Virus record (IMG/VR): IMGVR_UViG_3300007346_000025
Coordinates: 1 to 64,000 of that record
Strand: one strand, 5' to 3'
DNA length: 64,000 nucleotides
DNA from: a virus
Notes under the pieces: generated by a model
Database searches by the model: none
Told to the model about the DNA's origin: nothing
The model's input: the letters and a program-made list of their open reading frames with translations, nothing else
Made by a program: the position numbers and the translations under genes
In this document: piece by piece, positions 3-40,108 of the stretch
Numbering within the stretch: the first letter of the stretch is position 1
Layout: every line of letters begins with the position of its first letter

Positions 3-1004
3 ACTGATAATCCAGTAGCAGGAATTGGTTGTTCTGCAAGTTATGATAATGAAAACAGTATTCTTTATTTTTCTAAAAAAGATTATAAATTAAAAACTGA
101 ATATTCACAATCAATAAGTTATGATAGCAGTATAGATACTTTTATTCATACAGATGAATTTGGATTAAGAACTCCATTTAAAATAGATAGTGATTTTGCA
201 AAAACATATTTTGATGATGCATCTTGGACAGTAAGTTATGATCCTAAGATGCAATACTTTATAAGTTTCCATGATTGGCATCCTGGTTTATACATCCCAA
301 GTAAAGGTAATTTTTCTACTGTACTAAAAAATGGTATCTGGAAACATGGGTATGCATGCAATGACTATTGTAATTTCTATGGTGTACAATATCCATTTGA
401 AATTGAATTACCTTTTATTACCGGTCAAACTGTAACAACATTAAAAGGTGTTGAATACTATTTAGAATGTTATAGAAGAGATGCAAATTATTGTGTGGAT
501 CAATTCCACGTATTAGATTATAACTTTGATAAAGCTGTTGTATATAATTCAGAACAGGTATCTGGATATCTTAATTTAAATATCTTTCCTAAAAACAATG
601 TAACTCTTAGTCAAACTTATCCTAAACTAAATACATCTAACTTACAATCATTTGATATTCTATTTAGTAAAGAAGAGAATAAGTATAGATTTAATCAATT
701 CTGGGATATTACAAAAAATCGTGGAGAATTTCCTATTGGATCAACTTATCCACCAACAGGTCCAGTTATTCCAGGAACTACAGTATTGCAAGGTAACTAT
801 GCTGAAAATAGAATATGGATTACAGAACCTAATGGTTATATTAAACTATTAAATTCAAATGCTGTAGATTATAATAAATCTAATTTACAACGTAAGAAGT
901 TTAGACATTATATTAATTTTTTAACTTTATCTAAAGAAGATTCTAGAAATACTAATATGATTCTAAAAATTATTAATACTAAAAATCAATATTCTCCTAG
1001 ATAA
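3..1004 (+). CDS. Tail stabilization protein (P22 gp10-like, crAss-like), 5'-truncated
   Basis: Frame is open from nt 3 (TDNPVAGIGC...DASWTVSYDPK) into the 249..1004 ORF. The WTVSYDP..FISFHDW.P segment resembles crAss-like stabilization protein C-termini, and the gene precedes the cargo genes. Confidence 0.65.
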   Translation, partial: TDNPVAGIGCSASYDNENSILYFSKKDYKLKTEYSQSISYDSSIDTFIHTDEFGLRTPFKIDSDFAKTYFDDASWTVSYDPKMQYFISFHDWHPGLYIPSKGNFSTVLKNGIWKHGYACNDYCNFYGVQYPFEIELPFITGQTVTTLKGVEYYLECYRRDANYCVDQFHVLDYNFDKAVVYNSEQVSGYLNLNIFPKNNVTLSQTYPKLNTSNLQSFDILFSKEENKYRFNQFWDITKNRGEFPIGSTYPPTGPVIPGTTVLQGNYAENRIWITEPNGYIKLLNSNAVDYNKSNLQRKKFRHYINFLTLSKEDSRNTNMILKIINTKNQYSPR

Positions 1005-4000
1005 TGAAAAAAGTTAAAGTAGGAAAGTCTAAGATTCATGGTAATGGTTTATTTGCAAATGAACCAATTAAAAGAGGTGATGTAATTGAGTTGGTACATA
1101 CCATTAGAGAGATTGAGCCAGGTATGATGAAAACAACCCCAACTCTTTTAGGAAGAAATTATAATCACTCTGATGAACCAAATGCATTAAATGTAATTGA
1201 TGGTAATAATAGATATCTTATTGCTTTAAAAGAAATAGAAAAAGGTGGAGAAATTACTACTAACTATAGAAATAATCCAGATCTTGAGCAACCAGATTCA
1301 TTTACTACTAATGATAACTATATTTCATTTGACTATGATGATACTTTAACTACACCAGAGGGATTTAAGTTAGCTCAGCAAATGAATAAGGATGGAAATA
1401 ATCTTTATGTTATTACAGCAAGAGATAAGATTACTCCTGAAATGATTGAAAGAGCAGAAGCTGCAGGTATTCCAAAAGAAAATATTATTGCTGCTGGATC
1501 TGATAAAGAAAAAGTTAGAATCATTAAAGAAAATAATATTAGTAAACATATAGACAACAAAGACTCTGTAATAAAAGAATTGGGAGATAAAGGAGAATTA
1601 TTTTCTCCAGATGCTTATCCGGATTTAAAAGCAGACTTTGTTGAAATGGATTTATCTGAAGAAGATCTAAATAAACTTAAAGAAGGTGGTTTTATTATTG
1701 ATAAATATCCTGGTAAATATAAAAGTTCATATGCAGTTGGTGGTGCAACATCTCCAAAAAATCTAGATCCAGAGCATATGAAAAAATATAAAGAGGGTCT
1801 TAAAATTAATGAGAACTCTATCAAAGCTGGATATAAAAATGGTCTATGGTATCCTCACCATAGTGTAGAAGGTGGTGCTGATACAATTGGATATGGACAT
1901 AAACTTTCTGGATCTAATAATAGTAAGTACTATAAAGGTTTATCAACGGCACAAGTAGAAGATCTACTTGACTCAGATATATTAAAGCATCAAGCTATTG
2001 CTAAAAGTATAGTAGATAAAAAATATGGTGAAGGAACATTTGATAGTCTTCCACAAGATTCACAAATGCTTTTAGTAGACTATGCATATAATGGTGTTCT
2101 AAATCAGTTTCCTACATTTACAAAAGGTGTAGTTGAAGGTGATAAAAACACTATGCTTAAAGAATATAAAAGATACAGTGGAAGTAACCCATTAACTCAA
2201 AGAAATACTTGGACAGAAAATGTAATAAACACTGGAGATTTTAGTATGCCAGTTAATGCACAAGCAAGTGAAGAAAATAGTGGTGGAATACAATCAGCAG
2301 TAAAAAATTATGTTTCTAGTATAGATCTAAATGAATATGCTAAAGGTGGAGATGTATGTCCTGAAGGATATATGAAAGATGAAAATGGTGATTGCATTAG
2401 GATTCAAGATATTCCTGATATAACTGTGACAAATACATATGATGTTAATGGTGGAAAATGGAAAATTAATAATGGTGTTTGGACACAGTTATCAAATGAT
2501 GCTAAAGTAACAAATGCTCACACAAGAGATAGACAATCTGCATATAAGAAAGGTAAATCAGAAAGAGCATTTAGAAATATAACACCTCAAGGATATGGAG
2601 ATCTTCTAAAAAATTTAGAGAGATATAAAAGGTATACAAATAATTTGGGTAGAGATAAAAATGAATTACGTTGGGATATTTCTCCTGAAGGAAAACAAAT
2701 GTATTACAGTATTCCTCGTAGAGATGATATGTTTAGTCTATATTTAGGTTTACCACAGCAAAATAATTCTTTTGTTCCACAATTAATGTATAGACCTACA
2801 AATGAAAAAGATCCAAGTAGTTTATATTATAAGCCTAATTATTGGACAGAAAAAGAAAAACAAGCATTGCTAGATCAGTATTTGCAAATGTCTAAAAATA
2901 ATTATAATAAGAATATTTATAATGAAAGAGATGCAGTATTAAAACCTATTGTAGATAGTTTAAAAAAAGCTGGTGTTCCTGATTGGGATCCACAATACGG
3001 AACAGTATTTGACAATCCTTTAGGAGATTTTACTGTTACAAAAGGTAAAGATGAGTATGGTAATTATATATCTATTTATGATAAAATAGATTTTAATCCC
3101 TTTCAAACAGGTGCAGGTGCATCTATAAATCCTGCAGGTGCAGCATTACAAGCTTATATGCAATTACAGGGTCATAATGTTAATGCAGATACTGAAGCTT
3201 CTTCTCTTTTTGGTGCAGGTAAACCTTATGAAATTTATGATAGAATTTATTATGATCCAAAAACAAAAAAAGTTATAAAGCAAAATAATTTTGATAAAGG
3301 TGGGGAACGTAGAAAGAAAAAATATAAAGAAACGGAGATTCCAGAAGAAGATAAAACCCCATCTAATTACACTGGTGATAAAAAGACTAGAATACAAAAA
3401 GGATATTATGATCCTGAAAATGAGTCTTCTTATATGCTAGAGACACCAGATTTTAGAGTTTATGATCCTAGTTTATGGGGAAAGTATGGTAGAAAGTATG
3501 ATGAATCTCATGACAAACAAGCTTATATTGATAGAAAAAAAAGACAGTACCTTGCATTACATCCTATATTAAATAGAAAGGCTGGTCTTAGTATGGATTA
3601 CTTTCCAGAGAAAGTAGAACAAAACTTTGCAGGTAATTATGATTATGATAAAAATACTCAATTAGTTAAAGATGTTGCTAAAGAAGAAGGTTGGAACCCA
3701 CATAGAAGAGAGTCTTATGTAGATGATCTTACTAAACAAGGACAAAGAATAGTGGGTAATTCTAAATTCGGAAATAAACTTCAAGCAGATTATTGGGCTA
3801 GAAGTTTAGCAGGTTTACAAGAACTTGGAAACTTTCTTATAAAAACAACATTACCTGGAGAACAAGGTGATGTTTTAAAATATAAAATACCAGGACTTAC
3901 AAAAAAAGAACAAAAAGATATTGCAGACTCTAATTTTGGAGCACTTGAGTCTCTTGCTTTTGCAGATATTCCTGGTGCTGTTATTGCAAATGCTGCAAAA

Positions 4001-6478
4001 AATAGAGGACTATCATATGGTTCAGACTATAAAGAATTACCAGGAGTTTTGTCAGGACAAAAAATGCCTAATGTATCAGATCTTGATGCTACAGCACTAA
4101 ATCCATTTACTTGGGCAGGATTAGCAGATCTACCACAAGCAGCTATAAGTTTAGGAAGAGGAGCTGCAAAATTAAGTAAGTCTGGATATACTTTAGGAAA
4201 AGATGCATATGATCTTGGTAAAGATATTTATAGTGCAGGTAGAGGAGATAATTTATATTTTGCTACTTCAGCGGAAGCTCAACTTGCCAGAGACTTAAAA
4301 GAAGCAGGATTATTAGGAGAAAAGGTTGATCCAAAAATATTTGGTAAATATCCTAATCTAGCTCAAACTGCCACTAAGAGAAAGTTAAAAGATTATAATA
4401 CTACATTCAGAGCTGTTGATCCAAATATTGAAAAAGCAGCAACAGAAGATTTAATTGGAATGTATGAAGCAGGTGTTAACATTGAAGATCCTGTAGATGT
4501 TGCAAAATATATGAGCACTCACGTTCCATCTGAACAATACTTCTGGAGAGTAGGTGCAGAAAGTTTAGGTAGCAACCAAGATGCTTTATACACTGCAAAG
4601 TTTCCAAATATAGAAGATGCTTCAACTGGTCTACATAAGTACGGTACATATGTTACTGAAGTAAGACCTCCTATGGATTTTTCAGAAGGAACACCAAGAG
4701 ATTGGTTTAATCAATACTACAGGGATAAGCCTTTTGCTTATGAAAAAGGAATTGAGGAAGGTGCAGGTTGGACCCGGAAACAAGGACCTATTCAGTCAGG
4801 TACTGTTGTTGCACCAGAATTTGCACAATACTGGCCTTATGTTGGAAATAAAGGAGAAAAGGTATTAGAAGCAGTTAGAACTGTACCAACAAAAATGAGT
4901 GCAGAAGCACAAAGACTAAAAGCACTTAGAGACAAAATAGCTGCAAAAAATCTAGAAGATGTTAATGACATTGTTGGTAAAAGGGTAAATGGTGTTACAG
5001 AGTATGTTAGTTCATCTAAAAAATTACCAGGTGTTTCTAATGGAACATTTGCTTATAGAAATCCAACTCCTAGTAAGGTAAGTCCTGCAATTGAATTTAC
5101 AGGACCTATGAAACATTCTTTTGAGGATACTCCTGAAGTATTAACAGCTTTAAGACAAAGAGGTAGTTATTGGGATAATACAGGAATTCCTGGAAAAGAT
5201 CTCTTACATTCAGATATGATTACTTATCATGGAACTTATTCGGGTAGACCTATAGTAGAAGTTAAAATGCCTGATGGTTCTTCTGAGATGTTTTATAAAT
5301 CTTCTGGATGGGCAGGGAAACAAGGATCTGGTGCAAATAATACAACAGAAGGTATGTGGCAAGTATTTGGGGGGCATGCTGATACTCCAAAAACATCTAA
5401 TTGGTTTATTAAAGATTCCGGCTATAAAGATTACTATGGTAGTAAAACTTTTGCTAATATGGCTGAAAATCTGGATAATGCATTAATGCAAAAGTTAAAT
5501 ATTAAATCAGTAGATGAGCTAGATGATGCATTTAATTTTCAAAACAGATTTGGTAATACAGATAGTTTTATACCATCAGATCCAGGTAGGGAATTTGCCT
5601 ATAAAAATATAACTTCTAATAAAGTGCGTCCTACAAATACAGGATTAACTAATGCTGATATAGAAAGAGAGGCTGCTAAAAACATTGAATGGATTACTTC
5701 TCCTGAATATGCAAAAAGAAGAGCTGCTAATACAGGGGAAACTTCAGAAGAAATCCAAAGGAGTATAAATCAGATTATTAAAGATGCTGGTAATGCAAAA
5801 TTTGATTTAAATTCTGATCCACGGATAGCAGACCTCTATGAACGGTCCGGGGTTATGAAAAAGAAAAGATTGTTCCGTCCTGCAAAAGTAGAAGTTTCTG
5901 CTAGTGCTGAACAACCTTTACAAACATTAAGTCATGAAACAAAGCATTTATATTCTCCAGCAGTACATGATAGTAAGAGAGCCTATGATAATTACCCTAC
6001 AATAGGGGATGTCAATGATCCTTATTTTGGTTCAGGTCCTGAACAACAAGTAAGACATTTAAATGCTAGAGAACAAATTTTAGCAGAAAATAATCTTCCA
6101 ATAGATGCTCAACTATCTGAAGAACAAGTAAGAGAATTTGTAGATAAATGGGCAAAAAGAATGAATAAAAATGATTCTAATGTTAAATATCAAGACTATG
6201 ATCAGTTATGGTCAGATGAAGCTGGTAGAATCCAAAAAGAAATGTTAAAAGCAAAATATAATACTGATGATTTAAGTTATATAGGCACTTTACCCTATAT
6301 GCAAAAACTTAGGTTTATGAGTGATTATAAAGATTTACTCACTAGATCTATTACTAATACTTTGAATAAAGCATGGATGACAATTCCTGTAGCTGGAGGA
6401 CTTGAATTAATGAATTCTGAAAGTGTTACACAAAGACATGGTGGATCAATTCATAAACTTAGTAAGTTTATTAATTAA
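1004..6478 (+). CDS. 1824-aa polyvalent virion-associated protein: SET, HAD-like, lysozyme-like, unknown domains and C-terminal zincin
   Basis: SET motifs IHGNGLFA, NHSDEPN, EITTNY; HAD motif FDYDDTL plus ITAR and HIDN; muramidase-like E...DTIGYGHKL; HETKH at 5933-5947. TAATG-coupled to the upstream gene. Confidence 0.75.
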   Translation: MKKVKVGKSKIHGNGLFANEPIKRGDVIELVHTIREIEPGMMKTTPTLLGRNYNHSDEPNALNVIDGNNRYLIALKEIEKGGEITTNYRNNPDLEQPDSFTTNDNYISFDYDDTLTTPEGFKLAQQMNKDGNNLYVITARDKITPEMIERAEAAGIPKENIIAAGSDKEKVRIIKENNISKHIDNKDSVIKELGDKGELFSPDAYPDLKADFVEMDLSEEDLNKLKEGGFIIDKYPGKYKSSYAVGGATSPKNLDPEHMKKYKEGLKINENSIKAGYKNGLWYPHHSVEGGADTIGYGHKLSGSNNSKYYKGLSTAQVEDLLDSDILKHQAIAKSIVDKKYGEGTFDSLPQDSQMLLVDYAYNGVLNQFPTFTKGVVEGDKNTMLKEYKRYSGSNPLTQRNTWTENVINTGDFSMPVNAQASEENSGGIQSAVKNYVSSIDLNEYAKGGDVCPEGYMKDENGDCIRIQDIPDITVTNTYDVNGGKWKINNGVWTQLSNDAKVTNAHTRDRQSAYKKGKSERAFRNITPQGYGDLLKNLERYKRYTNNLGRDKNELRWDISPEGKQMYYSIPRRDDMFSLYLGLPQQNNSFVPQLMYRPTNEKDPSSLYYKPNYWTEKEKQALLDQYLQMSKNNYNKNIYNERDAVLKPIVDSLKKAGVPDWDPQYGTVFDNPLGDFTVTKGKDEYGNYISIYDKIDFNPFQTGAGASINPAGAALQAYMQLQGHNVNADTEASSLFGAGKPYEIYDRIYYDPKTKKVIKQNNFDKGGERRKKKYKETEIPEEDKTPSNYTGDKKTRIQKGYYDPENESSYMLETPDFRVYDPSLWGKYGRKYDESHDKQAYIDRKKRQYLALHPILNRKAGLSMDYFPEKVEQNFAGNYDYDKNTQLVKDVAKEEGWNPHRRESYVDDLTKQGQRIVGNSKFGNKLQADYWARSLAGLQELGNFLIKTTLPGEQGDVLKYKIPGLTKKEQKDIADSNFGALESLAFADIPGAVIANAAKNRGLSYGSDYKELPGVLSGQKMPNVSDLDATALNPFTWAGLADLPQAAISLGRGAAKLSKSGYTLGKDAYDLGKDIYSAGRGDNLYFATSAEAQLARDLKEAGLLGEKVDPKIFGKYPNLAQTATKRKLKDYNTTFRAVDPNIEKAATEDLIGMYEAGVNIEDPVDVAKYMSTHVPSEQYFWRVGAESLGSNQDALYTAKFPNIEDASTGLHKYGTYVTEVRPPMDFSEGTPRDWFNQYYRDKPFAYEKGIEEGAGWTRKQGPIQSGTVVAPEFAQYWPYVGNKGEKVLEAVRTVPTKMSAEAQRLKALRDKIAAKNLEDVNDIVGKRVNGVTEYVSSSKKLPGVSNGTFAYRNPTPSKVSPAIEFTGPMKHSFEDTPEVLTALRQRGSYWDNTGIPGKDLLHSDMITYHGTYSGRPIVEVKMPDGSSEMFYKSSGWAGKQGSGANNTTEGMWQVFGGHADTPKTSNWFIKDSGYKDYYGSKTFANMAENLDNALMQKLNIKSVDELDDAFNFQNRFGNTDSFIPSDPGREFAYKNITSNKVRPTNTGLTNADIEREAAKNIEWITSPEYAKRRAANTGETSEEIQRSINQIIKDAGNAKFDLNSDPRIADLYERSGVMKKKRLFRPAKVEVSASAEQPLQTLSHETKHLYSPAVHDSKRAYDNYPTIGDVNDPYFGSGPEQQVRHLNAREQILAENNLPIDAQLSEEQVREFVDKWAKRMNKNDSNVKYQDYDQLWSDEAGRIQKEMLKAKYNTDDLSYIGTLPYMQKLRFMSDYKDLLTRSITNTLNKAWMTIPVAGGLELMNSESVTQRHGGSIHKLSKFIN
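5048..5638 (+). repeat. Degenerate 45-bp direct repeat pair (5048-5092 and 5594-5638)
   Basis: FAYRNPTPSKVSPAI vs FAYKNITSNKVRPTN; 34/45 nt identical by manual alignment. Confidence 0.75.
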
Positions 6479-6514: not shown

Positions 6515-9500
6515 ATGAATAAAAAAGTAAGAATATATAATCCTCAGTATGCTCAAGGTGGTATTACTCAACAAGATATACAAAAATATCTAATGATGCA
6601 ACAACAGCAACAACCACAAATTACTGAAAGCAATTTAGTTGACTTAATTTATAATGAGTTAACTTTATTAGGAGATAAAGGTGGTTATGTTGATTCAGGG
6701 TACATTGATGACTTAGCTGAAAAAATAACAGCAATGTACAATCTTGATAATGACTATGTTATGAACTTAGTTACTGAAGTGTACTCAACTATTGCACCTT
6801 CAGAGTTGAAATATCAAAAAGATGTTATCAAAGAAAATTCTCCAAATCCAGAATTAGAAATGCTTGATCAAGAAAATGATGAAGAAAATCTTGAAGAAAA
6901 TATTTCAACTTATGATGATTATTATGGAGATGATATGGAAATGAAATATGGAGGAGTGTCTAGAAAAAAATTTATAAAAAAGTTTATTAAAAAAGCTCAA
7001 GAGGGTTTAGAACAAGAGTCTAATACATCTATAATAGGTAATAATGATATTCCAGATGGTAGAAATGCTTTAGTAAAAGGATTTGAATCTAGTGTTAAAA
7101 ATTCTGTAGTAGAAGCTGTTGCTAAAAATGAATTTGATAAAATGAAACAGCAAAGTTCTTATTTTACAAATGGTGGGTTTTATAATCCTACTAGTTCAGG
7201 TGATGAAGAAGCATATGCTCATCATTTAAATTTAATGGCACAAGCTAATAAAGATATTTTTAATCAACCTGGAATGACTACTGCTAGAGATGGTAGAGAG
7301 CAACGTAGAGCTAATAGGGATCAAAGAAGAGTTGGAAGAGATGTACAAAGAGTACTTAATAATCTTCCCGGGATGTATCCTGGAGGATTTAATGTATATA
7401 CAATGCCTGGACAAATTGTTCCAAATATGAGTCAATTAAGTCAAGGTATGCCGCCATTTACTATTGAAGGTGAGAGAAATATTTTTGGTGGTTTAAAAAG
7501 TTATAGAGCTACATTTGAAGGAGGTTTACCTGTAAACTTTATGGCAGGTATGATGATGCCTAGAACAATGGGAAGAGGAATGAATATGTTATCGTCAATG
7601 TATGGTTATCCATCATCATTCTATAATCAACGAAGTTATACTTATCCTGGTGAAATAATATACGAAGAAGTAAATAAAGAAGCTCTTAAAGAAGTAGATA
7701 AAAGTACACCAAATAATTCTTCAACAGAAGTAAAAGAATCTACAATACCTAGTCCATCTACAACTCCAGTAGTTCCTGGTATTAAGAAAACTAAAAAAAC
7801 TACAGTCCCACAGATAATCCCACAGACAACTCCACCTTATAAACCTGAGATAGATAGAGCAAAGTTTAAAGATGCTCTAGAACCAGATCCAGGAGAAAAT
7901 TATAAAGAGTGGAGAACAGAAGATGGTGGAGTAGGAGTTTCTTATGAAGCTCCCTATAAAACAGGGATGTTCGGTACAACAAAACCAGCAAGATATCAGA
8001 TTATATATAAACCTGATGGCAGTATAGATAAGAAAAAAAGTTTTGTTGCAGTTGTACAGTCAGAAGATTATGGAGGTGTAGTATATGTTCCATGGGATAA
8101 ACAAGGAACATTTTGGTATGATGATGGAGGAATAGTGATGAATACTAATACAAATCCTTTTGGTGAATTACAAAAGTATGTTTATGGTGGTTATGATCCA
8201 TCTGTTGCAGAACTTGACGGAACTAATCTTGTAGATCCATCAGATCCATATACAAGACAATTTTCTAATGGTGGAACAAAAGAAGAATATCAAAAGTATA
8301 TTGATTGGTATAATGAAGATGCTCCAGAAGAAGGAATGCGTAGAGCAGCTCCTCAATCATATGAAGAATGGATGGCAGAAAATCATCCAGAAATTAAACC
8401 TAAGCAAAATATTATTCCAAATTATAATCCTTATAATGCAGCTTTAGCAGCACAATATATGAATCAAGCAATGAACTTAAATAGAGAAATGCCTATGGGA
8501 ACATTAGCAAGATCTATTAATCCCTTCTCAATAAATAGAAGATTAGTTCAAAAAGGTTTGCCTATGATTGCAGGAACTAATATTCCATTTACTGGAGTAT
8601 TTGGTCCTGACACTAGAATATCTGAAATATATACTGAACCAAGAAGATTTGGTAAAGATGCCATACATTATAAATTTATGATTCCTGGTCAAGAAGGTCC
8701 TATGTTAGGAATGGATTGGCAACAACAAGTTCAACAGCAACAACAACAAAATCAACAACAGCAAGAAGGAGTTGTGGATGATTATTCTACTAGAACTAAG
8801 AAAAGAGGTCTTGAGGATGAAAGTCAAATTGCTATAAGACAAGGTGAAGGAGATGTAAGAAGAAGTACAAGAAGAGCAATGCGTCAAGATCCTGATGCTT
8901 TTTATGAAGGAGAACCATTAGAAGGTATGGTTACTCCTACATCTATGGAAGACTACATGGCAAAAATAAATGCTGATAATGCATTTAAAGTATTAGAAGA
9001 AAGGTTAAAAGAGAAAAATATAAAAGAGAAAAATGTAAAACCAAAATCTGAATATAAATCTAAAAGAGCAGCACTCAATGCTGCACTAAAGGGGGAATCA
9101 AGAAAAGACGTTAAAAATTTAGGTAAAGACTTTATTGGTTATAACCAAATACATAAAAATGTTGAAGAGCAAAAAAGAGTTTTTGATGAAATGCGTAAAG
9201 ATAAAACTCCAGAAGGTTTAGAAAAAACTCTTAGATATGGTACTGATATCCTTACACCTAATATGGAGAAAGTTTTAGCTAGAGGAAAATCTATAGAAGA
9301 TTATCAAGCTAATACTTCAAAAAAAGATAAAAGAAAAAATTTCAGAGAATTTAAAAAAGAAGCTAGAAATAGAGCAGAGGGTGGTTTTGTTCCAGACTAT
9401 ATGGCTTATGGTGGTACACCTATGTATCCTGATGGTGGATTTGTATATAACAATCCTGTAGATAATAGAGATAATACTGTAATGGGTGAAGACTTCTTTA

Positions 9501-9955
9501 CTGTAAATACAAATAATAATAATATTCCAGATTATCTTGAATGGCAATCAACACCTCAACAAGAAGTTGATGTAACATATCAGCAAAAAAATAAACTTAA
9601 TTTTCAACCTAGAGGTTTAATGCCTTTCCTTGGTAATATTGCAAGGAATACTAGAAATGCATTAGATGCTAGTATGATAGATAAGTTTAATACTCAAAAT
9701 ATGATGTCTTCTAATGGTAGAGTAGCTCCAACAGAAATGCTTTCTCAAGGTAGATATGATATTAATACTGGTAGAGAAATTGATAAAGGTTTTGAAGGTA
9801 TAATTGGAGCTGGACTTACTCAACAAACTTACTCTAAATTTGGTGGACAATTAAACTATGAAGAAGGTGGGGAATATGACCTTACAGAAGAAGAAATCCA
9901 AGCACTCATTGATGCCGGTGTAGATATTACTTTATTAGAAGATTATGAAGATTAG
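6515..9955 (+). CDS. 1146-aa low-complexity (Q/M/G/P-rich) putative virion cargo protein with many xxxGG motifs
   Basis: Long ORF in the structural block; poly-Q tracts; about 10 GG motifs such as YAQGG, FTNGG, YDDGG, FSNGG, YPDGG, YEEGG. Confidence 0.6.
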   Translation: MNKKVRIYNPQYAQGGITQQDIQKYLMMQQQQQPQITESNLVDLIYNELTLLGDKGGYVDSGYIDDLAEKITAMYNLDNDYVMNLVTEVYSTIAPSELKYQKDVIKENSPNPELEMLDQENDEENLEENISTYDDYYGDDMEMKYGGVSRKKFIKKFIKKAQEGLEQESNTSIIGNNDIPDGRNALVKGFESSVKNSVVEAVAKNEFDKMKQQSSYFTNGGFYNPTSSGDEEAYAHHLNLMAQANKDIFNQPGMTTARDGREQRRANRDQRRVGRDVQRVLNNLPGMYPGGFNVYTMPGQIVPNMSQLSQGMPPFTIEGERNIFGGLKSYRATFEGGLPVNFMAGMMMPRTMGRGMNMLSSMYGYPSSFYNQRSYTYPGEIIYEEVNKEALKEVDKSTPNNSSTEVKESTIPSPSTTPVVPGIKKTKKTTVPQIIPQTTPPYKPEIDRAKFKDALEPDPGENYKEWRTEDGGVGVSYEAPYKTGMFGTTKPARYQIIYKPDGSIDKKKSFVAVVQSEDYGGVVYVPWDKQGTFWYDDGGIVMNTNTNPFGELQKYVYGGYDPSVAELDGTNLVDPSDPYTRQFSNGGTKEEYQKYIDWYNEDAPEEGMRRAAPQSYEEWMAENHPEIKPKQNIIPNYNPYNAALAAQYMNQAMNLNREMPMGTLARSINPFSINRRLVQKGLPMIAGTNIPFTGVFGPDTRISEIYTEPRRFGKDAIHYKFMIPGQEGPMLGMDWQQQVQQQQQQNQQQQEGVVDDYSTRTKKRGLEDESQIAIRQGEGDVRRSTRRAMRQDPDAFYEGEPLEGMVTPTSMEDYMAKINADNAFKVLEERLKEKNIKEKNVKPKSEYKSKRAALNAALKGESRKDVKNLGKDFIGYNQIHKNVEEQKRVFDEMRKDKTPEGLEKTLRYGTDILTPNMEKVLARGKSIEDYQANTSKKDKRKNFREFKKEARNRAEGGFVPDYMAYGGTPMYPDGGFVYNNPVDNRDNTVMGEDFFTVNTNNNNIPDYLEWQSTPQQEVDVTYQQKNKLNFQPRGLMPFLGNIARNTRNALDASMIDKFNTQNMMSSNGRVAPTEMLSQGRYDINTGREIDKGFEGIIGAGLTQQTYSKFGGQLNYEEGGEYDLTEEEIQALIDAGVDITLLEDYED

Positions 9956-12233
9956 AATAAATAAATTACCTAAAAAACTTACTAAAGCATTAGTAGGAAA
10001 ACAAGTACAAGGATCTCTTGCCATTACTCCATCAGCATGGGGTGGTGGAGATTATAATGATAGTCTTGCTAATAAACAAACTCAAGTTAGAGATACTTTA
10101 CAACCAGTACCAAGAAATCTTGCTAATTTAGAAGCAGAAAGAGGAGAGTATGCATATGGTGGAATCTCTGGTGATAATATTCCAGATAACTTTAAAATAG
10201 GTGGTAAGAGACATTCTAAAGGTGGTACACCATTAGATCTTCCGGAAGGGTCATTTATTTTTTCTGACACAGCATCAATGAAGATTAAAGATCCATCTGT
10301 ATTAAAGATGTTTGATCTTAAACCAAAAAAAGGTGGATATACTCCTGCAGACATTGCAAAAAAGTATGATATTAATTCATACAAAAAATTGCTTTATGAT
10401 CCAAATACAGATGAGTTAACAAGAAAAACTGCAACTATCATGATTAAAAATTATATCATGAAGTTAGGATATCTTTCTATAGTTCAAGAAGCAATGAAAG
10501 GATTTCCACAAGGAATGCCTGAAGTAGCAAAACCTGTATTGGAAACTATGGGTTATTCTATGGAGCAATTTGTTCCTGAACCTGTACAACAAGGTCAACA
10601 AGAAATTATGGCTCAAGAGCAATCTGAAAATGAAATGCCAACAGAAATGCCAAATGGAGAACCTATTGCATCAATGGAAACAATGTATGGTGATGATGCT
10701 AATGCTCAACAAATACCAGTAAACCCTTCTATGCCAATGGCAGAGTATGGAATGACTCTTGGTGGTTATGATATGCCTATGTATCCTAATGGTGGTATGA
10801 TAATTCAACCATATGGAAGAGCAAATACACCTGCAGGAAATGAAACACCCACAGCTAAATCAAATACATGGAGTTCTCGTCAGCAACCACTACCTGAATT
10901 TTTAGCAGGATGGGAACAACATGTTCCAGGAATTTCTCAAATGACAGAAGGTCAAGCTCAAAAAGCAATGTATGAGTGGGCTCTTGAAAATAACCCAAGT
11001 GTTATTAGAGATATGTGGAAGGAATGGGGATTAACTGCTGCAGGAAGAGATATACCTAGTCTTGAAAGATTAACAATACCCGGTGATGATTATAGACATA
11101 GTGGTCATACAGGAGTATTTGATGATGCTACATTAGAAGATATTGAAAACTTAAGAGCTTTACAAGAAGGATTTGTTGATAACAAATTTGGTGCAAGACA
11201 GTTGAGTTATGATTATACACCACCTGAAAAGAAAGGATGCCCTTGTGAGGATGGAACTTACTCTGAAGAATGCTGTCCAGATACTCAGAAAAAGGGCTGT
11301 CCTTGTGAAGATGGTACATATTCTGAAGAATGTTGTCCAGATACTAGAAAGAAAAAATGTAAATGTGTAGATCCACAAACTGGTGTAGAAACAATAACAG
11401 AAATAGCTGAAGGTGAAGAGTGTAACTGTCCAGGAGGATCTTTTGAGCAACAAGGATTTCAAGATACTCCTGTATATTCAGACATAGCTTCTAGAAATAT
11501 TCTTACACAAATGACAATGGATCCAACTGTACCAAGAAGTAGTAGTGTGATGCCTAGTTATACTGAAACACCGGGTGCATATAAAGATTATTTAGCAGAT
11601 ATACAAAATATTGGTAGAGGACAATCTGCTATGATGGATATGATTCAAGGTACAGCAGGTAATGAAGGTAGTGCTTTTGCAAAAGCAATGACAACAGCAG
11701 CTCAATCTCAAGCTGCAAATCAAGCTGCTGTTAATGCAACACAAACAGATAACATTAATGCTGCTAGACAAGTTGGTCAGTATAATGCTCAAACTAAAGC
11801 TCTTAATAATGCTCAAAGAGCTGAGATTATGAACCAACAACTTCTTGCAACACAAGGAGAAAAACTTCAAGAAGTAATAAACCGTAATCAACTAGATCAG
11901 AATAAACAGGCAGCACTTCAAGATGCTGAAAGTGAGTTACAAGGTAGACTACTATCTAATTTTACAAATCAGCAATATGGTACAACATATAGAAGAGGAG
12001 TTCCATATTTTAAACAAGGTAAACCAAATGTTCCTGAAAAATCAACTGATGTTAATGAAAGAGTTAAACAGCTTCAAGCAATATATGGTAAAGATGCTAA
12101 AATAGGAGACTTACTTCAAATTATTAAAATGGAGCAGCAGCAGCAGCAGCCAAAACTTGTTAAAAAAGGTGGGCAAGCAACAGGTGGAGGATATATATTA
12201 GGTGAAAATATTTTTCCATTCATGTTTTACTAA
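9945..12233 (+). CDS. 762-aa crAss-like virion/cargo protein with Cys-rich tandem repeat
   Basis: NLEAERGE...GKRHSKGGTPLDLPEGSFIFSD N-terminal block resembles a conserved crAss-like structural gene; A/Q-rich helical C-terminus. Confidence 0.6.
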   Translation: MKIRINKLPKKLTKALVGKQVQGSLAITPSAWGGGDYNDSLANKQTQVRDTLQPVPRNLANLEAERGEYAYGGISGDNIPDNFKIGGKRHSKGGTPLDLPEGSFIFSDTASMKIKDPSVLKMFDLKPKKGGYTPADIAKKYDINSYKKLLYDPNTDELTRKTATIMIKNYIMKLGYLSIVQEAMKGFPQGMPEVAKPVLETMGYSMEQFVPEPVQQGQQEIMAQEQSENEMPTEMPNGEPIASMETMYGDDANAQQIPVNPSMPMAEYGMTLGGYDMPMYPNGGMIIQPYGRANTPAGNETPTAKSNTWSSRQQPLPEFLAGWEQHVPGISQMTEGQAQKAMYEWALENNPSVIRDMWKEWGLTAAGRDIPSLERLTIPGDDYRHSGHTGVFDDATLEDIENLRALQEGFVDNKFGARQLSYDYTPPEKKGCPCEDGTYSEECCPDTQKKGCPCEDGTYSEECCPDTRKKKCKCVDPQTGVETITEIAEGEECNCPGGSFEQQGFQDTPVYSDIASRNILTQMTMDPTVPRSSSVMPSYTETPGAYKDYLADIQNIGRGQSAMMDMIQGTAGNEGSAFAKAMTTAAQSQAANQAAVNATQTDNINAARQVGQYNAQTKALNNAQRAEIMNQQLLATQGEKLQEVINRNQLDQNKQAALQDAESELQGRLLSNFTNQQYGTTYRRGVPYFKQGKPNVPEKSTDVNERVKQLQAIYGKDAKIGDLLQIIKMEQQQQQPKLVKKGGQATGGGYILGENIFPFMFY
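11229..11348 (+). repeat. 2 x 60-bp tandem repeat encoding KKGCPCEDGTYSEECCPDT(Q/R)
   Basis: Directly visible: 19 identical residues with 9 synonymous nucleotide differences. Confidence 0.95.
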
Positions 12234-12277
12234 ACTTTATAAGTTTAATAAACTTATAAAATTTTAGTATTTTTATA
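12231..12277 (+). promoter_or_regulatory. Palindrome TAAACTT-TAT-AAGTTTA, overlapping 25-bp inverted repeat, and TTTAGTATTTTTA promoter-like motif
   Basis: Palindrome at 12231-12247; TTTATAAGTTTA-A-TAAACTTATAAA at 12236-12260; G of GTAT at 12267; ATG at 12294. Confidence 0.65.
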
Positions 12278-12293
12278 ATGTAAAGAATTTAAT

Positions 12294-15200
12294 ATGGCAA
12301 AGTATCCACAGGGGGTTTCAAGTTTTATTCCACAATATCAACCATACCAGGTTGATTTTAATTATGTGAATAATATGCTTGCAATAAAGCAAGATCAGTA
12401 TGATAGAAATTGGAAAGCTATCAATAAAGTATATGGACAGCTTTACTATGCTGATCTTACTAATCCCGCTAATATTCAAAAAAAAGAACAATTAGAAAAA
12501 CAAATTGATTTTAATTTAAAAAGAGTTGCAGGACTTGATTTATCATTAGATCAAAATGCTACTCAAGCTTTACAAATATTTAAACCTTTCTATGAAGATA
12601 AAAGTCTAATGTATGACATGGCATTTACCAAAAATGCTAAAATGGAAAAACTTACCGGTGAGTCATATAGAACAGCTACTGATGAAAAAATAAGAGAGCA
12701 GGCTTGGTCTGAAGGTATTAAAGCAATAGATTATAGAATTGATGAGTTTAGAAATTCTCCTATAGATGATATATTTTCTATACCTTCTCCTAAGTATGTC
12801 CCTTATCAAAATGTTAGTAAGAAAGCAATGGCTTATGCTAAGGAATTAGGGATTAAAGTAAAAGACTTTGGATTTACACCAGATGGTAGATTTATTATTG
12901 AACAACAAAATGGACAACCATTAGTAGGACCATTATATAAAATGTTTATGTCTGCATTTGGTAATGATGAGTCTATTATGGATGTGTATAGAACACAAGC
13001 ATATGTAAATAGAAAAGATTATATGTATGCTAATAAAGATAAATTAGGTAGTCTTGAAGCAGCAGAAGCTGAGTATTTAAATACAAAATTACAAGGATAT
13101 AAAGCTATTACTCAAGAAAGATATAATTTATTTAAAAATCAAGATAATACTTATACAAAGAATATTCAAAGCTTAGAACGTAGGATTGCTTCTGGAAATA
13201 AAGATCCTAGAGTAGCTGATCAATTAGAAAATATAAGAAAAGCTCAACAGGAAAATCAAGTTTTATTGGCTAAATATCAAAAATCCATAGAAGTAATGGA
13301 TGATGGTATATCTAGAACGGCTAATACTCAAGGAGGGGCTCCATCTAAAGATATAAATGATCTAAGATATAAAGTAGATTTTCTTGAACCTAGTTATATG
13401 TTAGAACAAGATCTTAGAGATGCTGCAGAATCATATGCAACTACAACTTCTGAAAGAACTATTAAAACAAATCAATTTAAACTTCAAGAAGAAAGAGCTG
13501 CACAAGCTAGAAGTTTGGCAATACTTAAAGATAAATTAGATACTAATAGACTTATTTTAAAATATAAACTTGACTCTGGAGAATATGATTTAGTTGAACA
13601 AGACAATCAAAAATTTTTAGTACCTAAAAAAGAACTTAATGAAGTTGAACCTATTAAAACTGAAGGAGGAGAGGGATTTACTAAACAATCAAATGAGTCA
13701 CAACAAGAAGCTCAAAAAAAACAAGAGGAAGTAGAAAGAACAAGAAATGAGCAAAGTGTAAAATCTATGTTTAGTACAATTCTTCAACTTCATGAATCTG
13801 GAGATATGTCTGATGAAGAATTCTTTAGTATAACTCAAGATCTTGGAATGTCTGAAAGATGGAATAGACGGCACCCCACTAAAGAAGCATTTAATTTTGG
13901 TTTTCCATCAAACTCTGATTCTAAAAATGATAGAAGAAGGAAGCTTGAAAACTATTCATCATTAGATATTAATGATATGTCTCCATTCTCTATAGCAGAA
14001 GTAACAGCTGGATTTAAAAATTGGATTACTAAAAAGAATAAACTTCCAGAATATCAAAATAATGGAAATTTTCAAAATGTAATAAATAACTTTAATAATA
14101 TTGAAGATATTGGTGAAGGTCTTATTGCTAAACATGACCTTAAAGTTAAATATGCTGAAGAAACTAGTAGATTATTAAATAAAGAATATAAAACTAATCT
14201 TGGTAAATATCTATTTGATAGTGATGGTAATATGCGAGATGATATTACTATAACTCAAATGATGGTAAATGATGGATTAGTTGTAGATGCAGATGGTAAT
14301 AAAATTGGTGTTGAGGGTGGTAATGATAATGCATATGGAACACAAAATAGAGCTTGGTTGGGTACACCAAAAGGTTTGGCAGCATGGACGGCTGCAGGTG
14401 CATCATTTGGTCTGATGGGTGGACCATTTGCTGAAGTTACAGTTCCTGCTGGTGCTTTCATTGCTGGTGTTGGTTATCTTGGAAGTAGTTTTGGAACAGC
14501 ACTTTATGATAAAATAGTTCAAGGAGATGATCCAAATGTATTAGCTTATGTAAAAGGAGAAAAAGATGGTTGGGAGTATAATAGATCAGTAAAAGATGCA
14601 TTAGAATTTGCAAAAGAATCTTTTGGTGATTTACAAGAAAAAAATATGATTAAAACACCATTATATGGTTATTCAAATACAGGAGGTGGAAAATTTTTAA
14701 CAAGCTCTGGTAGAATTACTGTTATGCCTGGTGCTTTTGGTACAGATAATTTTAAAAGATATTCACAATTAAATAATGCATTTAAAAATTTATCCTATAC
14801 AAAAGATGAAACAAGAGCAAGTGTTTCAGGTTATAGTGAAAATGATTGGAATACTGCAACTGATGAAAAATTAAATTCTGTTACTCAAAGTATACTTAAA
14901 GATCTTTATGAATATTCTAAAAATAAAAAAAATAAAGATAATAAATTTACTTTAGATTTTCATCCAGTTGCAAATGGGTCATTAAATTATTCAGCTGTTA
15001 CAATTGATATACCTGAAAAAATTGCTGAAAAATATAAAATGAAATATGAAGGTAAAGAAAATGAATCAGGTTTCTTAAGTTCACAAGTATATGATAAGTT
15101 AATTACAAATGGTTTAACACTTATTACTAAAAGTTCAAACTTTGCTGGAACAGATCTTTATGATAAGGCATTTATGGATCCTGTAGAAAATAGGGTAAGG

Positions 15201-15455
15201 GCACAATATGCAATTGATGGAACAGGAGTAACATATACAAATCCATACTATGATAATTACTCAATTTCTTTTACACAATTACCAAGTGGAGATATAGAAT
15301 ATAAACAAACAATTCCAATGTGGAATCCAAATACAAAGAGTTATGTGGATGTAGGAGCATCTGCTGTATTATCTGGACAAGGTTTACAACTTCAAAAGTT
15401 TAGAAATAATTTCTGGACTCAAGTTGCAGAGATGAATGAAAAAAATAACCCATGA
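12294..15455 (+). CDS. 1053-aa putative ejection (internal virion) protein
   Basis: Helical/coiled-coil composition; Gly/Ala-rich hydrophobic hairpin (GLAAWTAAGASFGLMGG...GAFIAGVGYLG, about 14370-14500); lies upstream of the virion RNAP. Confidence 0.6.
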   Translation: MAKYPQGVSSFIPQYQPYQVDFNYVNNMLAIKQDQYDRNWKAINKVYGQLYYADLTNPANIQKKEQLEKQIDFNLKRVAGLDLSLDQNATQALQIFKPFYEDKSLMYDMAFTKNAKMEKLTGESYRTATDEKIREQAWSEGIKAIDYRIDEFRNSPIDDIFSIPSPKYVPYQNVSKKAMAYAKELGIKVKDFGFTPDGRFIIEQQNGQPLVGPLYKMFMSAFGNDESIMDVYRTQAYVNRKDYMYANKDKLGSLEAAEAEYLNTKLQGYKAITQERYNLFKNQDNTYTKNIQSLERRIASGNKDPRVADQLENIRKAQQENQVLLAKYQKSIEVMDDGISRTANTQGGAPSKDINDLRYKVDFLEPSYMLEQDLRDAAESYATTTSERTIKTNQFKLQEERAAQARSLAILKDKLDTNRLILKYKLDSGEYDLVEQDNQKFLVPKKELNEVEPIKTEGGEGFTKQSNESQQEAQKKQEEVERTRNEQSVKSMFSTILQLHESGDMSDEEFFSITQDLGMSERWNRRHPTKEAFNFGFPSNSDSKNDRRRKLENYSSLDINDMSPFSIAEVTAGFKNWITKKNKLPEYQNNGNFQNVINNFNNIEDIGEGLIAKHDLKVKYAEETSRLLNKEYKTNLGKYLFDSDGNMRDDITITQMMVNDGLVVDADGNKIGVEGGNDNAYGTQNRAWLGTPKGLAAWTAAGASFGLMGGPFAEVTVPAGAFIAGVGYLGSSFGTALYDKIVQGDDPNVLAYVKGEKDGWEYNRSVKDALEFAKESFGDLQEKNMIKTPLYGYSNTGGGKFLTSSGRITVMPGAFGTDNFKRYSQLNNAFKNLSYTKDETRASVSGYSENDWNTATDEKLNSVTQSILKDLYEYSKNKKNKDNKFTLDFHPVANGSLNYSAVTIDIPEKIAEKYKMKYEGKENESGFLSSQVYDKLITNGLTLITKSSNFAGTDLYDKAFMDPVENRVRAQYAIDGTGVTYTNPYYDNYSISFTQLPSGDIEYKQTIPMWNPNTKSYVDVGASAVLSGQGLQLQKFRNNFWTQVAEMNEKNNP

Positions 15456-18400
15456 TGGAAGAAATGGATTTAAATCAATCATTATCACAAGAGACTAATG
15501 ATCTTTATTCTGGTGTAACGGATTTTAATGAATATTTTCCTATAAGTCCTTCTGAACCACCTACTGTTACAAATTTAGGAACACAGAATTATATTACAGG
15601 ATCTGCTCCAGGAAATCTTCCTTCACAGGTTCCAAAAAATCCAGCATATAATTTTGATGATCATAAAAAAGCTATGCAAAATTATATGTGGAATTTTGCT
15701 CAGCAAAATGCATATGATCCAAATGCTTATGGTAAAATTCAATCTTATGACTTAGGTCCTACTGGTAATGCATATTATCGTAGATATGCTGCATCTGGAT
15801 TAGATGTTATGGATGAACTAGGTTTTTTTCCAACTAAAGATAATGAACAAACTTGGAATGATAATACATCTTGGACAGATGATTTTTCTAGAATGATTAC
15901 CAATTCTTTTGGTACACTTTTTTATGAAGGTGTGGTTTCTGGACCTAAATCATTGTCAAGATGGTTACAGGGAGCTGATTTTTTTGATGTAGATCCAGAA
16001 GCAGCCATGAATTATGAAAGAGCTTCTGCTATAGGTTATAGCTCAAGAAAAGGAGCTGGTGCATTTACAAGTAATCTAGTTATGAACTTTGGTTATACAG
16101 CAGGTATAATTTCAGAGATTATGTTAGAGGAACTTGGAGCTGCTGTATTAGCTCCATTTACTGGTGGTGCATCATCAGCTGCTGTAACTGCAAATGCAGC
16201 TAGAAGACTTAATAGACTTAGTCATATTGATATGAGTACATTAAGAGTTGCAAAAGGATTTGATGCATCTATGGATGGAGCTCGTCAATTTGGTAATGTA
16301 CTTACTGAGTTAAATGATATAAATAATGCAAGGAAAACTTATGAAGCTGTTAAGACATCTAATAATATGCTTAGAGGTGAGAAGTTTTTCTCTAATTATT
16401 TTGTTAAAACTTTAAATCCTGCTACACAAACAGTATCAGAATTATATGATATATACCGTGCACAAGATAATCTTGCTGGGTTTGCCTCTATGTCTAGAAC
16501 TTTAGGAGCTTTTTATAGAGATATTAGAACTATCAATATGGCAAGATCTGAGTCAGCTCTTGAAGCAGGGATGGTTCAAAATAAAGTATTTGAGGATTTA
16601 TATAATAAGTACTATGCAGAAAATGGAGAAGTTGCTAGTGATGAAGAAATGCGTAATATGATGAACCAAGCACATGCTGCTGGTATTGAAACATCAATGT
16701 ATAACTTCCCTCTTATATATGCAACTAATAAAGTTACTTTTTCTAATCTTCTTAGTAAAGGAAAAATTAGTAATTATATAAATCAAAGTATTAGAGAACT
16801 TGGTGAGGTTGAAGCAGGAAGATTTGGAAAACTTGGTAAAGTTGTATATAATCAAAGTACTAAACAATTTGAATTTTGGAAATCAGGTTTAAAAAGTTGG
16901 TGGAAAGGTTGGAGAGCTGATCCTTTTTATAAGTCAGTAGGTAAAACAGTTGGATATTTTAAAGCTAATATTTCAGAAGGTATTCAAGAAACATTCCAAG
17001 AAGTAATTGCAGATGCTGCAGAAAAGTATTATGTAGAAACTTATGATAGTGATCTTGTACAAAAACAAATGTATAAAAATGGTCAGCTACCATATTTAAA
17101 TATTACTGGGGAATATTTTGCTAAAGGTTTTGAAAGATTCAACCCCTTTACAACAGCAGAAGGACTTGATATATTTGCATCTGGATTTTTTATGGGCTTT
17201 TTAGGTGGTGGTATGGATAAAGTCATTAATAATACCTTTATCCGTGCTAATAGAATTGTACAGCCAGAAAAATATAAAGAATATAAAGAAAAGAAATTAG
17301 AAATAACTAGAGACTTAGTTAATAGTTTAAATGGTCAAGGGGTAAGTAACTTCATTAATTCAAGAATGTGGGATGCTGGAGTTCAATCTAAAGCAGCTGC
17401 TGCAAAAAGAAAAGGAAATAAAAAAGAATTAGAAGATGCTGAGAATGAAGCATTTATTGCACATTTTACTGTATTATCTGAAAACGGTGTATTAGATCAA
17501 TATTTAGATGGTTTATTATCCTTAAATAAGTTAGGGGACGAAGAATTTATTGATGCTATGGATAATAGTATTACAGCAGAACAAATACCTCAAGCTAAAC
17601 AAAAAATCACAGATATAGTAGATAGAGCTAAAAAATTAGAAAGTAAATACAACTACTACAAAGAAAAATATCCTAGTCCTGTAGACATGAAACTGTTTGA
17701 TCCAGGAGCTAGTGAAGATTATACAGAAGCATATATCATGAATCAAGCATGGGAATATGCAACTAAGCAAGCAGTATTTTATAATGAGTCATTTGAAAAT
17801 ACTATGCAAAGAATGAAGGACATCATGGAACTGCAATATAATGAACGTCCTGTTAGTAAAATGACTAAAAGACAATCTGATGTATTATTTGTACCAAAAT
17901 TATTATCAAATGAAATAGGTCTTTTACAAAATGAAATTGATGCTTTATCAGAATTAGATGATCCAGCATCAAAAGAATTATTAAAAACAAAGAAAAAAGA
18001 ACTTAACGCACTTATTAAATACAAAGAAAAATTTGATTCATTTGACAGATATTATCATAGAGGTAGATATATTGAGGGTGTAAAAGAAAAATTATCTAAA
18101 GAAAGAGGTGGTGTTGAAATAACTAATGAAGAAGCTTCTGCATATATTCTTGAAGCATTAGGGGTAGATGAAGCTACTGAAGAAAAAGAACTTAAATTAA
18201 TTTCAGAATTAGAGACTGCATATAAAGAATATTTAAGAGGTATTTCTGAAGTAGAAGATGATTATATTTTTACAGATGGTATAGATACTGCATTTGAAAG
18301 ATTACTTGACTATTATAAATTAGACAATGAATCAAGAACTCTTGCAGAAGGTATCAATCTTCTTAATGACCCTATGGGTTATATAAATCTAGTTGAAAGA

Positions 18401-21487: not shown

Positions 21488-21490
21488 ACT

Positions 21491-32581: not shown

Positions 32582-32600
32582 AAATTCGTATATTTATATA
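32582..32600 (+). promoter_or_regulatory. TTCGTATATTTA promoter-like motif
   Basis: Same GTATATT core (G at 32588) as upstream of 6515, 12294, 56080 and 56775. Confidence 0.55.
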
Positions 32601-32611
32601 AATAAGAAACA

Positions 32612-38485: not shown

Positions 38486-38516
38486 AAAAAGGGGGTCATT
38501 AACCCCCTTTTCTTTT
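38484..38516. terminator. Bidirectional intrinsic terminator between the convergent gene blocks
   Basis: AAAAGGGGGT-CATTA-ACCCCCTTTT hairpin flanked by A and T tracts. Confidence 0.9.
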
Positions 38517-39533: not shown

Positions 39534-39535
39534 AA

Positions 39536-39922: not shown

Positions 39923-39923
39923 A

Positions 39924-40097: not shown

Positions 40098-40108
40098 AAA
40101 ACAAAGTT

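Follow-up and report, generated by a model that had tools for sequence, protein, structure and literature searches.

Among the closest described counterparts of the protein presented here is vSET (A612L) of the chlorovirus PBCV-1, a minimal viral SET methyltransferase that, in the words of one review, the virus 'encodes and packages'; the same text terms it 'the smallest histone methyl-transferase' and implicates it in the shut-off of host transcription (PMC7019647). A second point of reference is the phage ΦcrAss001, for which PMC10172136 reports the cargo proteins gp45, gp46, gp47, gp49, and gp50 from virion mass spectrometry, all numbered just past the gene of the muzzle (the tail-tip gatekeeper), and models their ejection N-terminus first. 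A third is the concept of polyvalent proteins, in which a single giant polypeptide encoded by a mobile element joins several unrelated effector domains that shuffle freely (Iyer et al. 2017, PMC5512222). Here we describe a protein of 1824 amino acids (aa) with an N-terminal SET domain, encoded next to a muzzle gene in the IMG/VR virus record IMGVR_UViG_3300007346_000025, which shares features with each of these systems. The record is linear, comprises 72,792 bases, and is rated 61% complete by CheckV; the analysed window consists of its bases 1–64,000.

Like vSET (PDB 1n3j, 3kma), the domain in question is a minimal viral SET lacking zinc-cluster pre- or post-SET regions. According to the review (PMC7019647), virions carry vSET, which targets a host protein at an early stage of infection, a mechanism that we only propose for the phage protein. 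Their settings differ: vSET is a free-standing protein of 119 aa from a eukaryotic virus and methylates histone H3 K27, whereas the present domain, of about 100 aa, forms the N-terminus of a 1824-aa phage mosaic, carries a post-SET motif of its own (P-E/D-L-E-Q-P), and would operate in a presumed host without histones. The comparison with ΦcrAss001 centers on gp45 (C1), whose gene likewise comes first past the muzzle gene, shares its strand, and precedes genes for very large proteins; the 1824-aa protein would, like gp45, be expected to be ejected N-terminus first through the tail. In contrast to the 1824-aa protein, gp45 has a mass of 90.8 kDa and a predicted transmembrane helix, for which we found no equivalent here, and the accessible text of PMC10172136 reports for it none of the SET, HAD-like, and lysozyme-like modules described below. 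As an extreme mosaic, the protein fits the polyvalent concept (PMC5512222), and its relatives carry ART-PolyVal, a domain defined in that same study. The polyvalent hub domains MPTase, ArdC-N, SNF2, and N6A-methylase were not found in the 1824-aa protein by Pfam scans, and the SET domain is absent from the main text of PMC5512222 as available, where all eight instances of 'set' are the everyday word and neither 'lysine methyl' nor 'protein methyl' appears.

A first-pass annotation of the window had claimed a SET signature from three peptide strings, all of which are present in the translation of the plus-strand open reading frame (ORF) 1004..6478: SKIHGNGLFA (residues 9–18), RNYNHSDEPNA (51–61), and LIALKEIEKGGEITTNY (72–88). 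Profile searches bore this assignment out at a level well in excess of chance. The Pfam SET family PF00856 matched residues 1–109 with 42.8 bits (E 7.7e-11) against a curated cut-off of 22.4, and the whole 1824-aa protein with 34.1 bits (E 3.9e-8). In phmmer searches of the PDB, we recovered the Plasmodium SET protein 4rz0 (E 4e-7) and PBCV-1 vSET 1n3j (E 5e-4, query residues 4–97), the latter alignment placing E83-I-T-T-N-Y88 over E-I-T-I-S-Y of vSET. Structure prediction gave the same answer: in an AlphaFold2 model of residues 1–470, built from a 39-sequence alignment, residues 1–96 adopt a SET fold at a predicted local distance difference test score (pLDDT) of 85–97. The top Foldseek match of this fold in the PDB was vSET 3kma_A (E 2.9e-7, target-normalised template modelling score 0.70, 25% identity), in keeping with the likeness to the chlorovirus enzyme noted at first pass. 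It was accompanied by 4rz0, MLL1, SETD8, and ASH1L, the E-values of this set spanning 3e-7 to 3e-5, and by NSD and SET7/9 further on. A VIA search against representatives gave Z 12.0 to 4rz0_B (root-mean-square deviation (rmsd) 2.7, 89 aligned), Z 11.8 to MLL1, and Z 11.0 to SET8 (rmsd 2.0, 77 aligned).

The motif residues of the domain are intact and comprise G13-x-G15 (here G13-N-G15), N54-H55-S56-D-E-P59-N60, and E83..Y88, with the usual Cys of the NHSC motif replaced by Asp. Across the 154 SET domains contained in the 150 best representatives of the family, which were clustered at 50% identity, G13, G15, H32, G50, N54, H55, E83, and Y88 are invariant (154/154). We take GxG and NH, the latter within NH(S/C)xxPN, to be the SET cofactor motifs and Y88, in E-x-x-x-x-Y, to be the catalytic tyrosine. 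The SET codons are under purifying selection, with a ratio of nonsynonymous to synonymous divergence (dN/dS) of 0.084 at dS ~1.07 relative to an 83%-identical locus (L006). The domain contains no Cys and therefore lacks a zinc-binding pre- or post-SET region; at ~100 aa here, and ~92 aa in relatives without an insert of 8 residues, it is also shorter than vSET (119 aa). The subfamily displays a specific and nearly invariant post-SET motif, P-(E/D)-L-E-Q-P-(E/D)-x-F, represented here by P92-D-L-E-Q-P-D-S-F100 and predicted to close the cofactor and lysine channel. The extent first assigned to the domain, 1004..1275, correctly captured residues 1–90 but stopped short of this motif, with which the domain reaches approximately residue 100 (nucleotide 1303). 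Residues 1–100 are therefore confirmed as a genuine, compact, and apparently intact SET domain, and the invariant motifs together with the purifying selection make it likely to be catalytically active.

The reading frame itself appears sound at its 5' end. The A of its ATG at position 1004 is also the last base of the TAA that terminates the upstream ORF (1002–1004), a one-base TAATG overlap, and 49 of 88 long homologs match the query in blastp from its first residues, almost all of them residue 1 to residue 1. Because of both features, we regard the start codon, and likewise the placement of SET at the N-terminus, as reliable. The 1824-aa protein contains two Cys in total and none within residues 1–450.

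Searched exhaustively with HMMER, a set of 1.84 billion cluster representatives yielded 924 with the SET domain at E ≤ 1e-3 (241 at E ≤ 1e-10), each standing for a cluster at 50% identity. In the best 150, the SET domain lies within 60 residues of the N-terminus in 124, at the C-terminus in 18, and internally in 8; two SET domains occur in 4 of the 150, and in the relatives P0109, P0116, P0134, and P0148 we observed a tandem SET pair near the N-terminus. Lengths range widely, with 65 of these 150 proteins at ≥1000 aa and 11 below 200 aa, many of them probably truncated at contig ends. The 11 short proteins show 43–54% identity, and some are named 'SET domain-containing protein' by their sources; a word-indexed search had returned no stand-alone homolog of 59–191 aa at E ≤ 1e-5, whereas the exhaustive search did find these 11. 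A Pfam scan of 27 giant relatives detected SET in 25 at E ≤ 1e-4, with SLT (2), YkuD (4), LysM (1), and ART-PolyVal (1) as partners above cut-off.

Outside metagenomic viral contigs, the domain appears to be rare. A single-pattern scan of prokaryote genomes, one per species for 185,579 species, recovered only two contigs (a lower bound), both from metagenome bins, and two PHROGs, both without assigned function, match the SET region. For at least one phage isolate, PMC9025141 makes brief mention of a stand-alone 'SET domain protein' gene. The initial description of the domain as an unusual phage cargo thus holds for deposited phages, whose 50,697 records include only 2 with a match to the SET region (E ≤ 1e-3), and for the literature, in which we found no description of it, but not for metagenomes, where it is common (the 924 representatives above and the 72 loci below). 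As judged from these distributions, the mini-SET subfamily appears almost confined to viral contigs and, if delivered at all, would be delivered by virions. This sets it apart from SET enzymes that are cellular proteins, namely the prokaryotic Gö1-SET of Methanosarcina mazei, which methylates the archaeal chromatin protein MC1-alpha, and the secreted effectors LegAS4 of Legionella and BaSET of Bacillus anthracis, which methylate host histones after delivery into another cell, as given in the accessible text of PMC3980110.

The ORF immediately upstream of the SET-bearing gene identifies its genomic setting. It matches phrog_37948, 'virion structural protein' (E 5.8e-18), and, in tblastn, a coding sequence of csAssE-Sib annotated 'Muzzle protein' (26.5% identity, E 5e-17), as well as Fpv1 gp30 and virion structural proteins from phages of Flavobacterium and Cellulophaga. 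The full-length muzzle homolog of a related locus, L005, additionally matches Leptolyngbya phage Lbo-JY46 and, weakly, the N-termini of virion proteins in the uncultured crAss-like phages cr55_1, cr50_1, and cr10_1. The homologs in Flavobacterium and Cellulophaga phages point to a possible Bacteroidota host, with the Leptolyngbya phage matching too. We then fetched the DNA of 72 viral SET loci, which were retrieved in an alignment-based scan with the post-SET motif pattern (an earlier single-sequence scan gave only 2 loci) and include near-duplicates such as L004/L005 and L010/11/13/14. A muzzle homolog lies within the fetched DNA of 33 loci, and in 32 of these the muzzle and SET ORFs are immediate neighbors; in the one exception, L067, SET forms an inner part of an ORF located 4.3 kb downstream. 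The other 39 loci are organized differently, with SET at the C-terminus of ORFs of ~700 aa, inside an ORF, or as a stand-alone protein of 110–210 aa. Together with the profile and the fold, the upstream muzzle homolog and its recurrence beside SET uphold the first-pass placement of an N-terminal SET domain on a phage virion-module protein.

The SET-bearing gene lies in a run of very large plus-strand ORFs that extends for ~37 kb and is followed by the replication module on the opposite strand. The two sides differ sharply in composition: six of the seven large plus-strand ORFs contain 6 Cys in 11,687 aa, versus 83 in 7,045 aa (1.18%) for the minus-strand ORFs of the replication side (Fisher p 1.5e-28), the exception being the 762-aa ORF at 9945..12233 with 12 Cys. 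This depletion is consistent with, although no proof of, proteins that travel unfolded through tail and envelope. Annotation of Cellulophaga phage phi17:2 assigns the genes past the muzzle homolog to tail or virion structural proteins, with a single small hypothetical protein as the exception. A tblastn search with the 2011-aa neighbor found no match in the 50,697 phage records.

C-terminal to the SET domain, residues 101–210 were modelled at pLDDT 90–96 as a Rossmannoid, cap-less fold. The best VIA match of this region was the 3'-phosphatase domain of T4 Pnkp (5uj0_B, Z 10.8, rmsd 2.4, 99 aligned), followed by a universal stress protein (10.6) and many HAD hydrolases (Z 10.4–8.7). The motifs DxDxT (D110-Y-D112-D-T114), (T/S)AR, and HxD(N/D)K are retained among homologs of ~50% identity. 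No HAD family was matched in Pfam (E ≤ 5) or NCBIfam, and the sole PHROG match, phrog_4256, has no assigned function; as no HAD profile matches, we term the region HAD-like by fold and motif only. With T4 Pnkp 3'-phosphatase as the best structural match, a role of this predicted module in end-healing or counter-defence is conceivable. The SET and HAD-like regions travel as a block: residues 1–236 recur at 80–88% identity in ~20 proteins with otherwise unrelated remainders, and at ~50% identity in another group. The lysozyme-like module that follows matched PF00959 with 22.5 bits as an excised segment against a cut-off of 22.3, but with only 18.9 bits within the whole protein; homologs of this block carry precomputed PF00959 assignments. 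Its model reaches pLDDT 67–89 for residues 320–390, and E289, the candidate catalytic Glu, falls in a low-confidence part.

The remaining ~1350 residues consist of four blocks, M4–M7 (Table 1), which by blast mapping recur in other giant proteins in varied orders and combinations; M4, for instance, sits at differing positions within the seven relatives listed for it. The most widely shared block, M6, shows 60 invariant columns among 13 sequences (alignment A2), and its model (residues 1300–1560; mean pLDDT 54, core 70–86) returned no structural match in a wide VIA search, the best Z being 3.6. Pfam gave nothing significant for body residues 470–1824, NCBIfam nothing significant for any segment of the protein, and the ESM Atlas only unnamed clusters of insufficient score (0.85 and 0.78) for residues 470–1824. 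Carriers of the body modules do contain recognizable families—ART-PolyVal, VanY, YkuD, SLT, tail lysozyme PF18013, and LysM—the first four of which form heads ahead of the body modules. ART-PolyVal (PF18760) accompanies SET in P0216 and is likewise present in two proteins with body modules of the query, P0233 and P0249. The 1824-aa protein is therefore an extreme mosaic of SET, HAD-like, lysozyme-like, and four shuffled modules; the first-pass annotation had mentioned neither this mosaic character nor the HAD-like and lysozyme-like neighbors of SET.

A side observation concerns the junctions between these modules. GG dipeptides are not generally enriched in the protein (11 versus 11.5 expected). 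Within 20 residues past the L/M-E-Q-P motif of the SET head, a (K)GG occurs in 86 of 123 motif instances, versus 16% of random windows. In the query, GG is found at residues 228–229 (1685–1690) and 246–247 (1739–1744), where the SET and HAD block meets the lysozyme block. In the relatives P0089–P0232, short conserved peptides often trail the (K)GG, such as M-T-P-Q-K-D-G-Y-R-T-Y-S-P-F-K. The (K)GG after the SET head may serve as a linker, as an anchoring peptide, or as a site of proteolytic processing by which the head would be released.

The source of this putative cargo protein is best explained as a crAss-like podophage, uncultured and bearing a muzzle. The first-pass suggestion of a methyltransferase that is injected or acts at maturation, on host nucleoid or defence proteins or on virion proteins, is plausible. 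With a probability that we put at about 0.5, we infer a lysine methyltransferase that is packaged in the virion, injected, and directed at host proteins—a phage counterpart to the packaged vSET. According to this proposal, the protein would be packed into the capsid or the tail cargo space at assembly, and at infection it would be extruded through the tail ahead of the DNA, with its lysozyme module helping to breach the cell wall, such that the SET head (with the HAD-like module) would arrive in the cytoplasm. There, SET would methylate lysines of host proteins with host S-adenosylmethionine (SAM) before phage gene expression, the candidate targets being a nucleoid-associated, transcription, or defence protein. 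More tentatively, one may picture these heads as a swappable warhead of crAss-like cargo: the smallest SET domains known, restricted to viruses, could be injected, here along with a phosphatase, and rewrite a nucleoid, transcription, or defence protein within seconds of adsorption, ahead of phage gene expression. We consider this extended version possible rather than probable.

Several points weigh against injection. In a tblastn search, the whole protein had no match at E 1e-5 in the 50,697 phage records, a set in which the presence of ΦcrAss001 is unconfirmed; since no sequence similarity to deposited phage proteins was detected, the likeness to gp45 is one of gene position only, and packaging, too, was deduced from gene position. 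Nor did the searches of these records turn up a cultured relative that carries the gene. A hydropathy scan, the only method applied for this feature, revealed no convincing transmembrane helix, the best 19-residue Kyte-Doolittle mean being 1.21 at residues 980–998, with no candidate at the N-terminus. Topology poses a further problem, as the lysozyme would act in the periplasm and SAM is cytoplasmic; an N-terminal SET exits first and yet must reach the cytoplasm. Bacteria have no histones, and no target can be named from the sequence. The contig is incomplete (61%), so that capsid, portal, and any protease gene were not seen. Finally, the ratio of 32/33 overstates the number of independent cases, because the loci were retrieved through the post-SET motif and include near-duplicates.

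The alternative that survives best, although we consider it unlikely, is that SET acts in the producer cell on the phage's own proteins—itself, the cargo, the capsid, or the tail—during assembly, for example to protect lysines or tune packing, and thereafter is only a passenger. SAM is available solely in the producer's cytoplasm, which removes the conflict between periplasm and cofactor, and SET is covalently tied to a protein encoded among virion genes; relatives show lysine-rich peptides right after the SET domain, and the neighboring 1146-aa ORF has K/R-rich stretches. A free enzyme would, however, suffice for such a task, yet in 124 of the 150 best representatives SET is the N-terminal part of a larger protein, and the N-terminus is the end that leaves first in the ΦcrAss001 model, as presented in PMC10172136. 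The partner domains of the family (lysozyme, SLT, YkuD, and ART-PolyVal) likewise represent entry or host-directed activities.

Clearly less probable is an active SAM-dependent methyltransferase with a substrate other than lysine, such as a small molecule, an amino group of the cell envelope, or another nucleophile. The SET-like protein BurB (9l4t_A), solved with free methionine, is among the structural matches (Z 9.2); neither the i-SET insert nor the zinc clusters, which in eukaryotic enzymes shape the binding of histone peptides, are present in the domain, and its partners are cell-wall enzymes. Nevertheless, protein-lysine methyltransferases account for all of the best matches, whether by structure or by sequence, the tyrosine that lines their lysine channel is invariant here, and the periplasm, where cell-wall substrates reside, contains no SAM. 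A comparably small chance attaches to the protein not being packaged at all but serving as an ordinary intracellular multi-enzyme protein, early or late, that happens to lie beside the muzzle gene. Such a role would agree with the missing similarity to any verified cargo protein and with the lack of a predicted transmembrane helix. It is at odds with a gene on the same strand as the muzzle gene, translationally coupled to it, and located inside the 37-kb run of very large ORFs, with the Cys depletion that separates the large plus-strand ORFs from the replication genes, and with the muzzle adjacency in 32 of 33 loci; moreover, mass spectrometry identifies the counterparts in ΦcrAss001 as virion components, as far as the accessible text of PMC10172136 describes it, and annotation does so for those in phi17:2. 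That SET is a pseudo-enzyme retained as a binding or structural module, for example as a plug or adaptor within the tail, is highly improbable: its extreme trimming (~92–100 aa versus 119 aa in vSET) and the ΦcrAss001 cargo segments described in PMC10172136 as resolved in structural roles bound to the portal, tail barrel, and muzzle would fit, but the checked cofactor and catalytic residues are invariant in 154/154 domains despite clustering at 50% identity, and dN/dS is 0.084.

Table 1. Features of the window around the SET-bearing gene; residue numbers refer to the protein named or, where no protein is named, to the 1824-aa protein.
Feature	Position	Strand	Basis or remark
Muzzle (tail-tip gatekeeper) homolog, C-terminal 333 aa, cut by contig start	3..1004	+	PHROG and tblastn
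Mosaic polyvalent protein, putative ejected cargo	1004..6478	+	1824 aa; first gene past muzzle gene
Minimal SET domain, residues 1–100	1004..1303	+	Pfam, predicted fold, invariant catalytic residues
Cap-less HAD-like phosphatase fold, residues 101–210	1304..1633	+	Model and motif I D110-x-D112-x-T114
GH24 phage-lysozyme-like module, residues 240–416	1721..2251	+	PF00959 at threshold
Module M4, residues 470–768	2411..3307	+	52–98% identity with P0002, P0239, P0240, P0244, P0245, P0248, P0249
Module M5, residues 792–1294	3377..4885	+	Common to P0233 (53%), P0005/6, P0235/6, others
Module M6, residues 1360–1525	5081..5578	+	Most widely shared; depth 17 in 31-protein coverage profile
C-terminal module M7, residues 1523–1823	5570..6472	+	61–68% identity to C-termini of P0003, P0004, P0241, P0243
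Six further large ORFs (1146, 762, 1053, 2011, 3696, 1957 aa)	6515..38485	+	Presumed remainder of cargo/virion module
NADAR domain, residues 3387–3498 of 3696-aa ORF 21491..32581	31649–31984	+	PF08719, 49.5 bits versus cut-off 35.1
LysM domain, residues 1648–1685 of 1957-aa ORF 32612..38485	37553–37666	+	24.5 bits versus cut-off 20.9
Cluster between virion and replication modules: 4HBT thioesterase, DUF6445, MazG-like PRA-PH pyrophosphohydrolase, DUF932	38515–41401	-	

Among the other large ORFs (Table 1), the largest (3696 aa) carries a NADAR domain near its C-terminus. NADAR enzymes strip ADP-ribose from DNA, and the domain may constitute a second, putative packaged counter-defence module. 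The same ORF contains, at residue 2453 (~28847–28861), the segment S-G-S-D-F-D-V-D-K, its only D-x-D-x-D and the single suggestive site from a scan of the large ORFs for this pattern, which we take to resemble the metal-binding motif of crAss-like virion RNA polymerases. The 1146-aa ORF directly following the SET-bearing gene (6515–9955) displays poly-Q runs along with its K/R-rich stretches and has no Pfam or PHROG match; it contains 17 GG versus ~8 expected, mostly after an aromatic residue (Y-A-Q-G-G, K-Y-G-G, A-Y-G-G, K-F-G-G).

Our survey of the literature on SET domains in phages, virions, Crassvirales, and polyvalent proteins, and on phage lysine methylation, recovered no description of the mini-SET cargo family; the sole crassvirus match in the search for SET domains concerned immunoglobulin 'C2-set domains'. 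Enzymes delivered by phages and modifying host proteins upon entry are known, ADP-ribosyltransferases such as T4 Alt among them; we know of no injected phage lysine methyltransferase. Both the enzyme fold and the delivery concept are known, and it is their combination that we did not find described. At ~92–100 residues, the domain would offer structural and engineering studies a SET scaffold more compact than any other known. If it is active and ejected, protein methylation would join the phage repertoire of takeover and counter-defence, and crAss-like cargo proteins, which belong to very abundant phages, would gain their first enzymatic function beyond RNA polymerase and cell-wall lysis. Should the SET heads indeed act as swappable warheads, lysine methylation would be a phage mechanism of host takeover or counter-defence, a prokaryotic parallel to the silencing of host chromatin by vSET.

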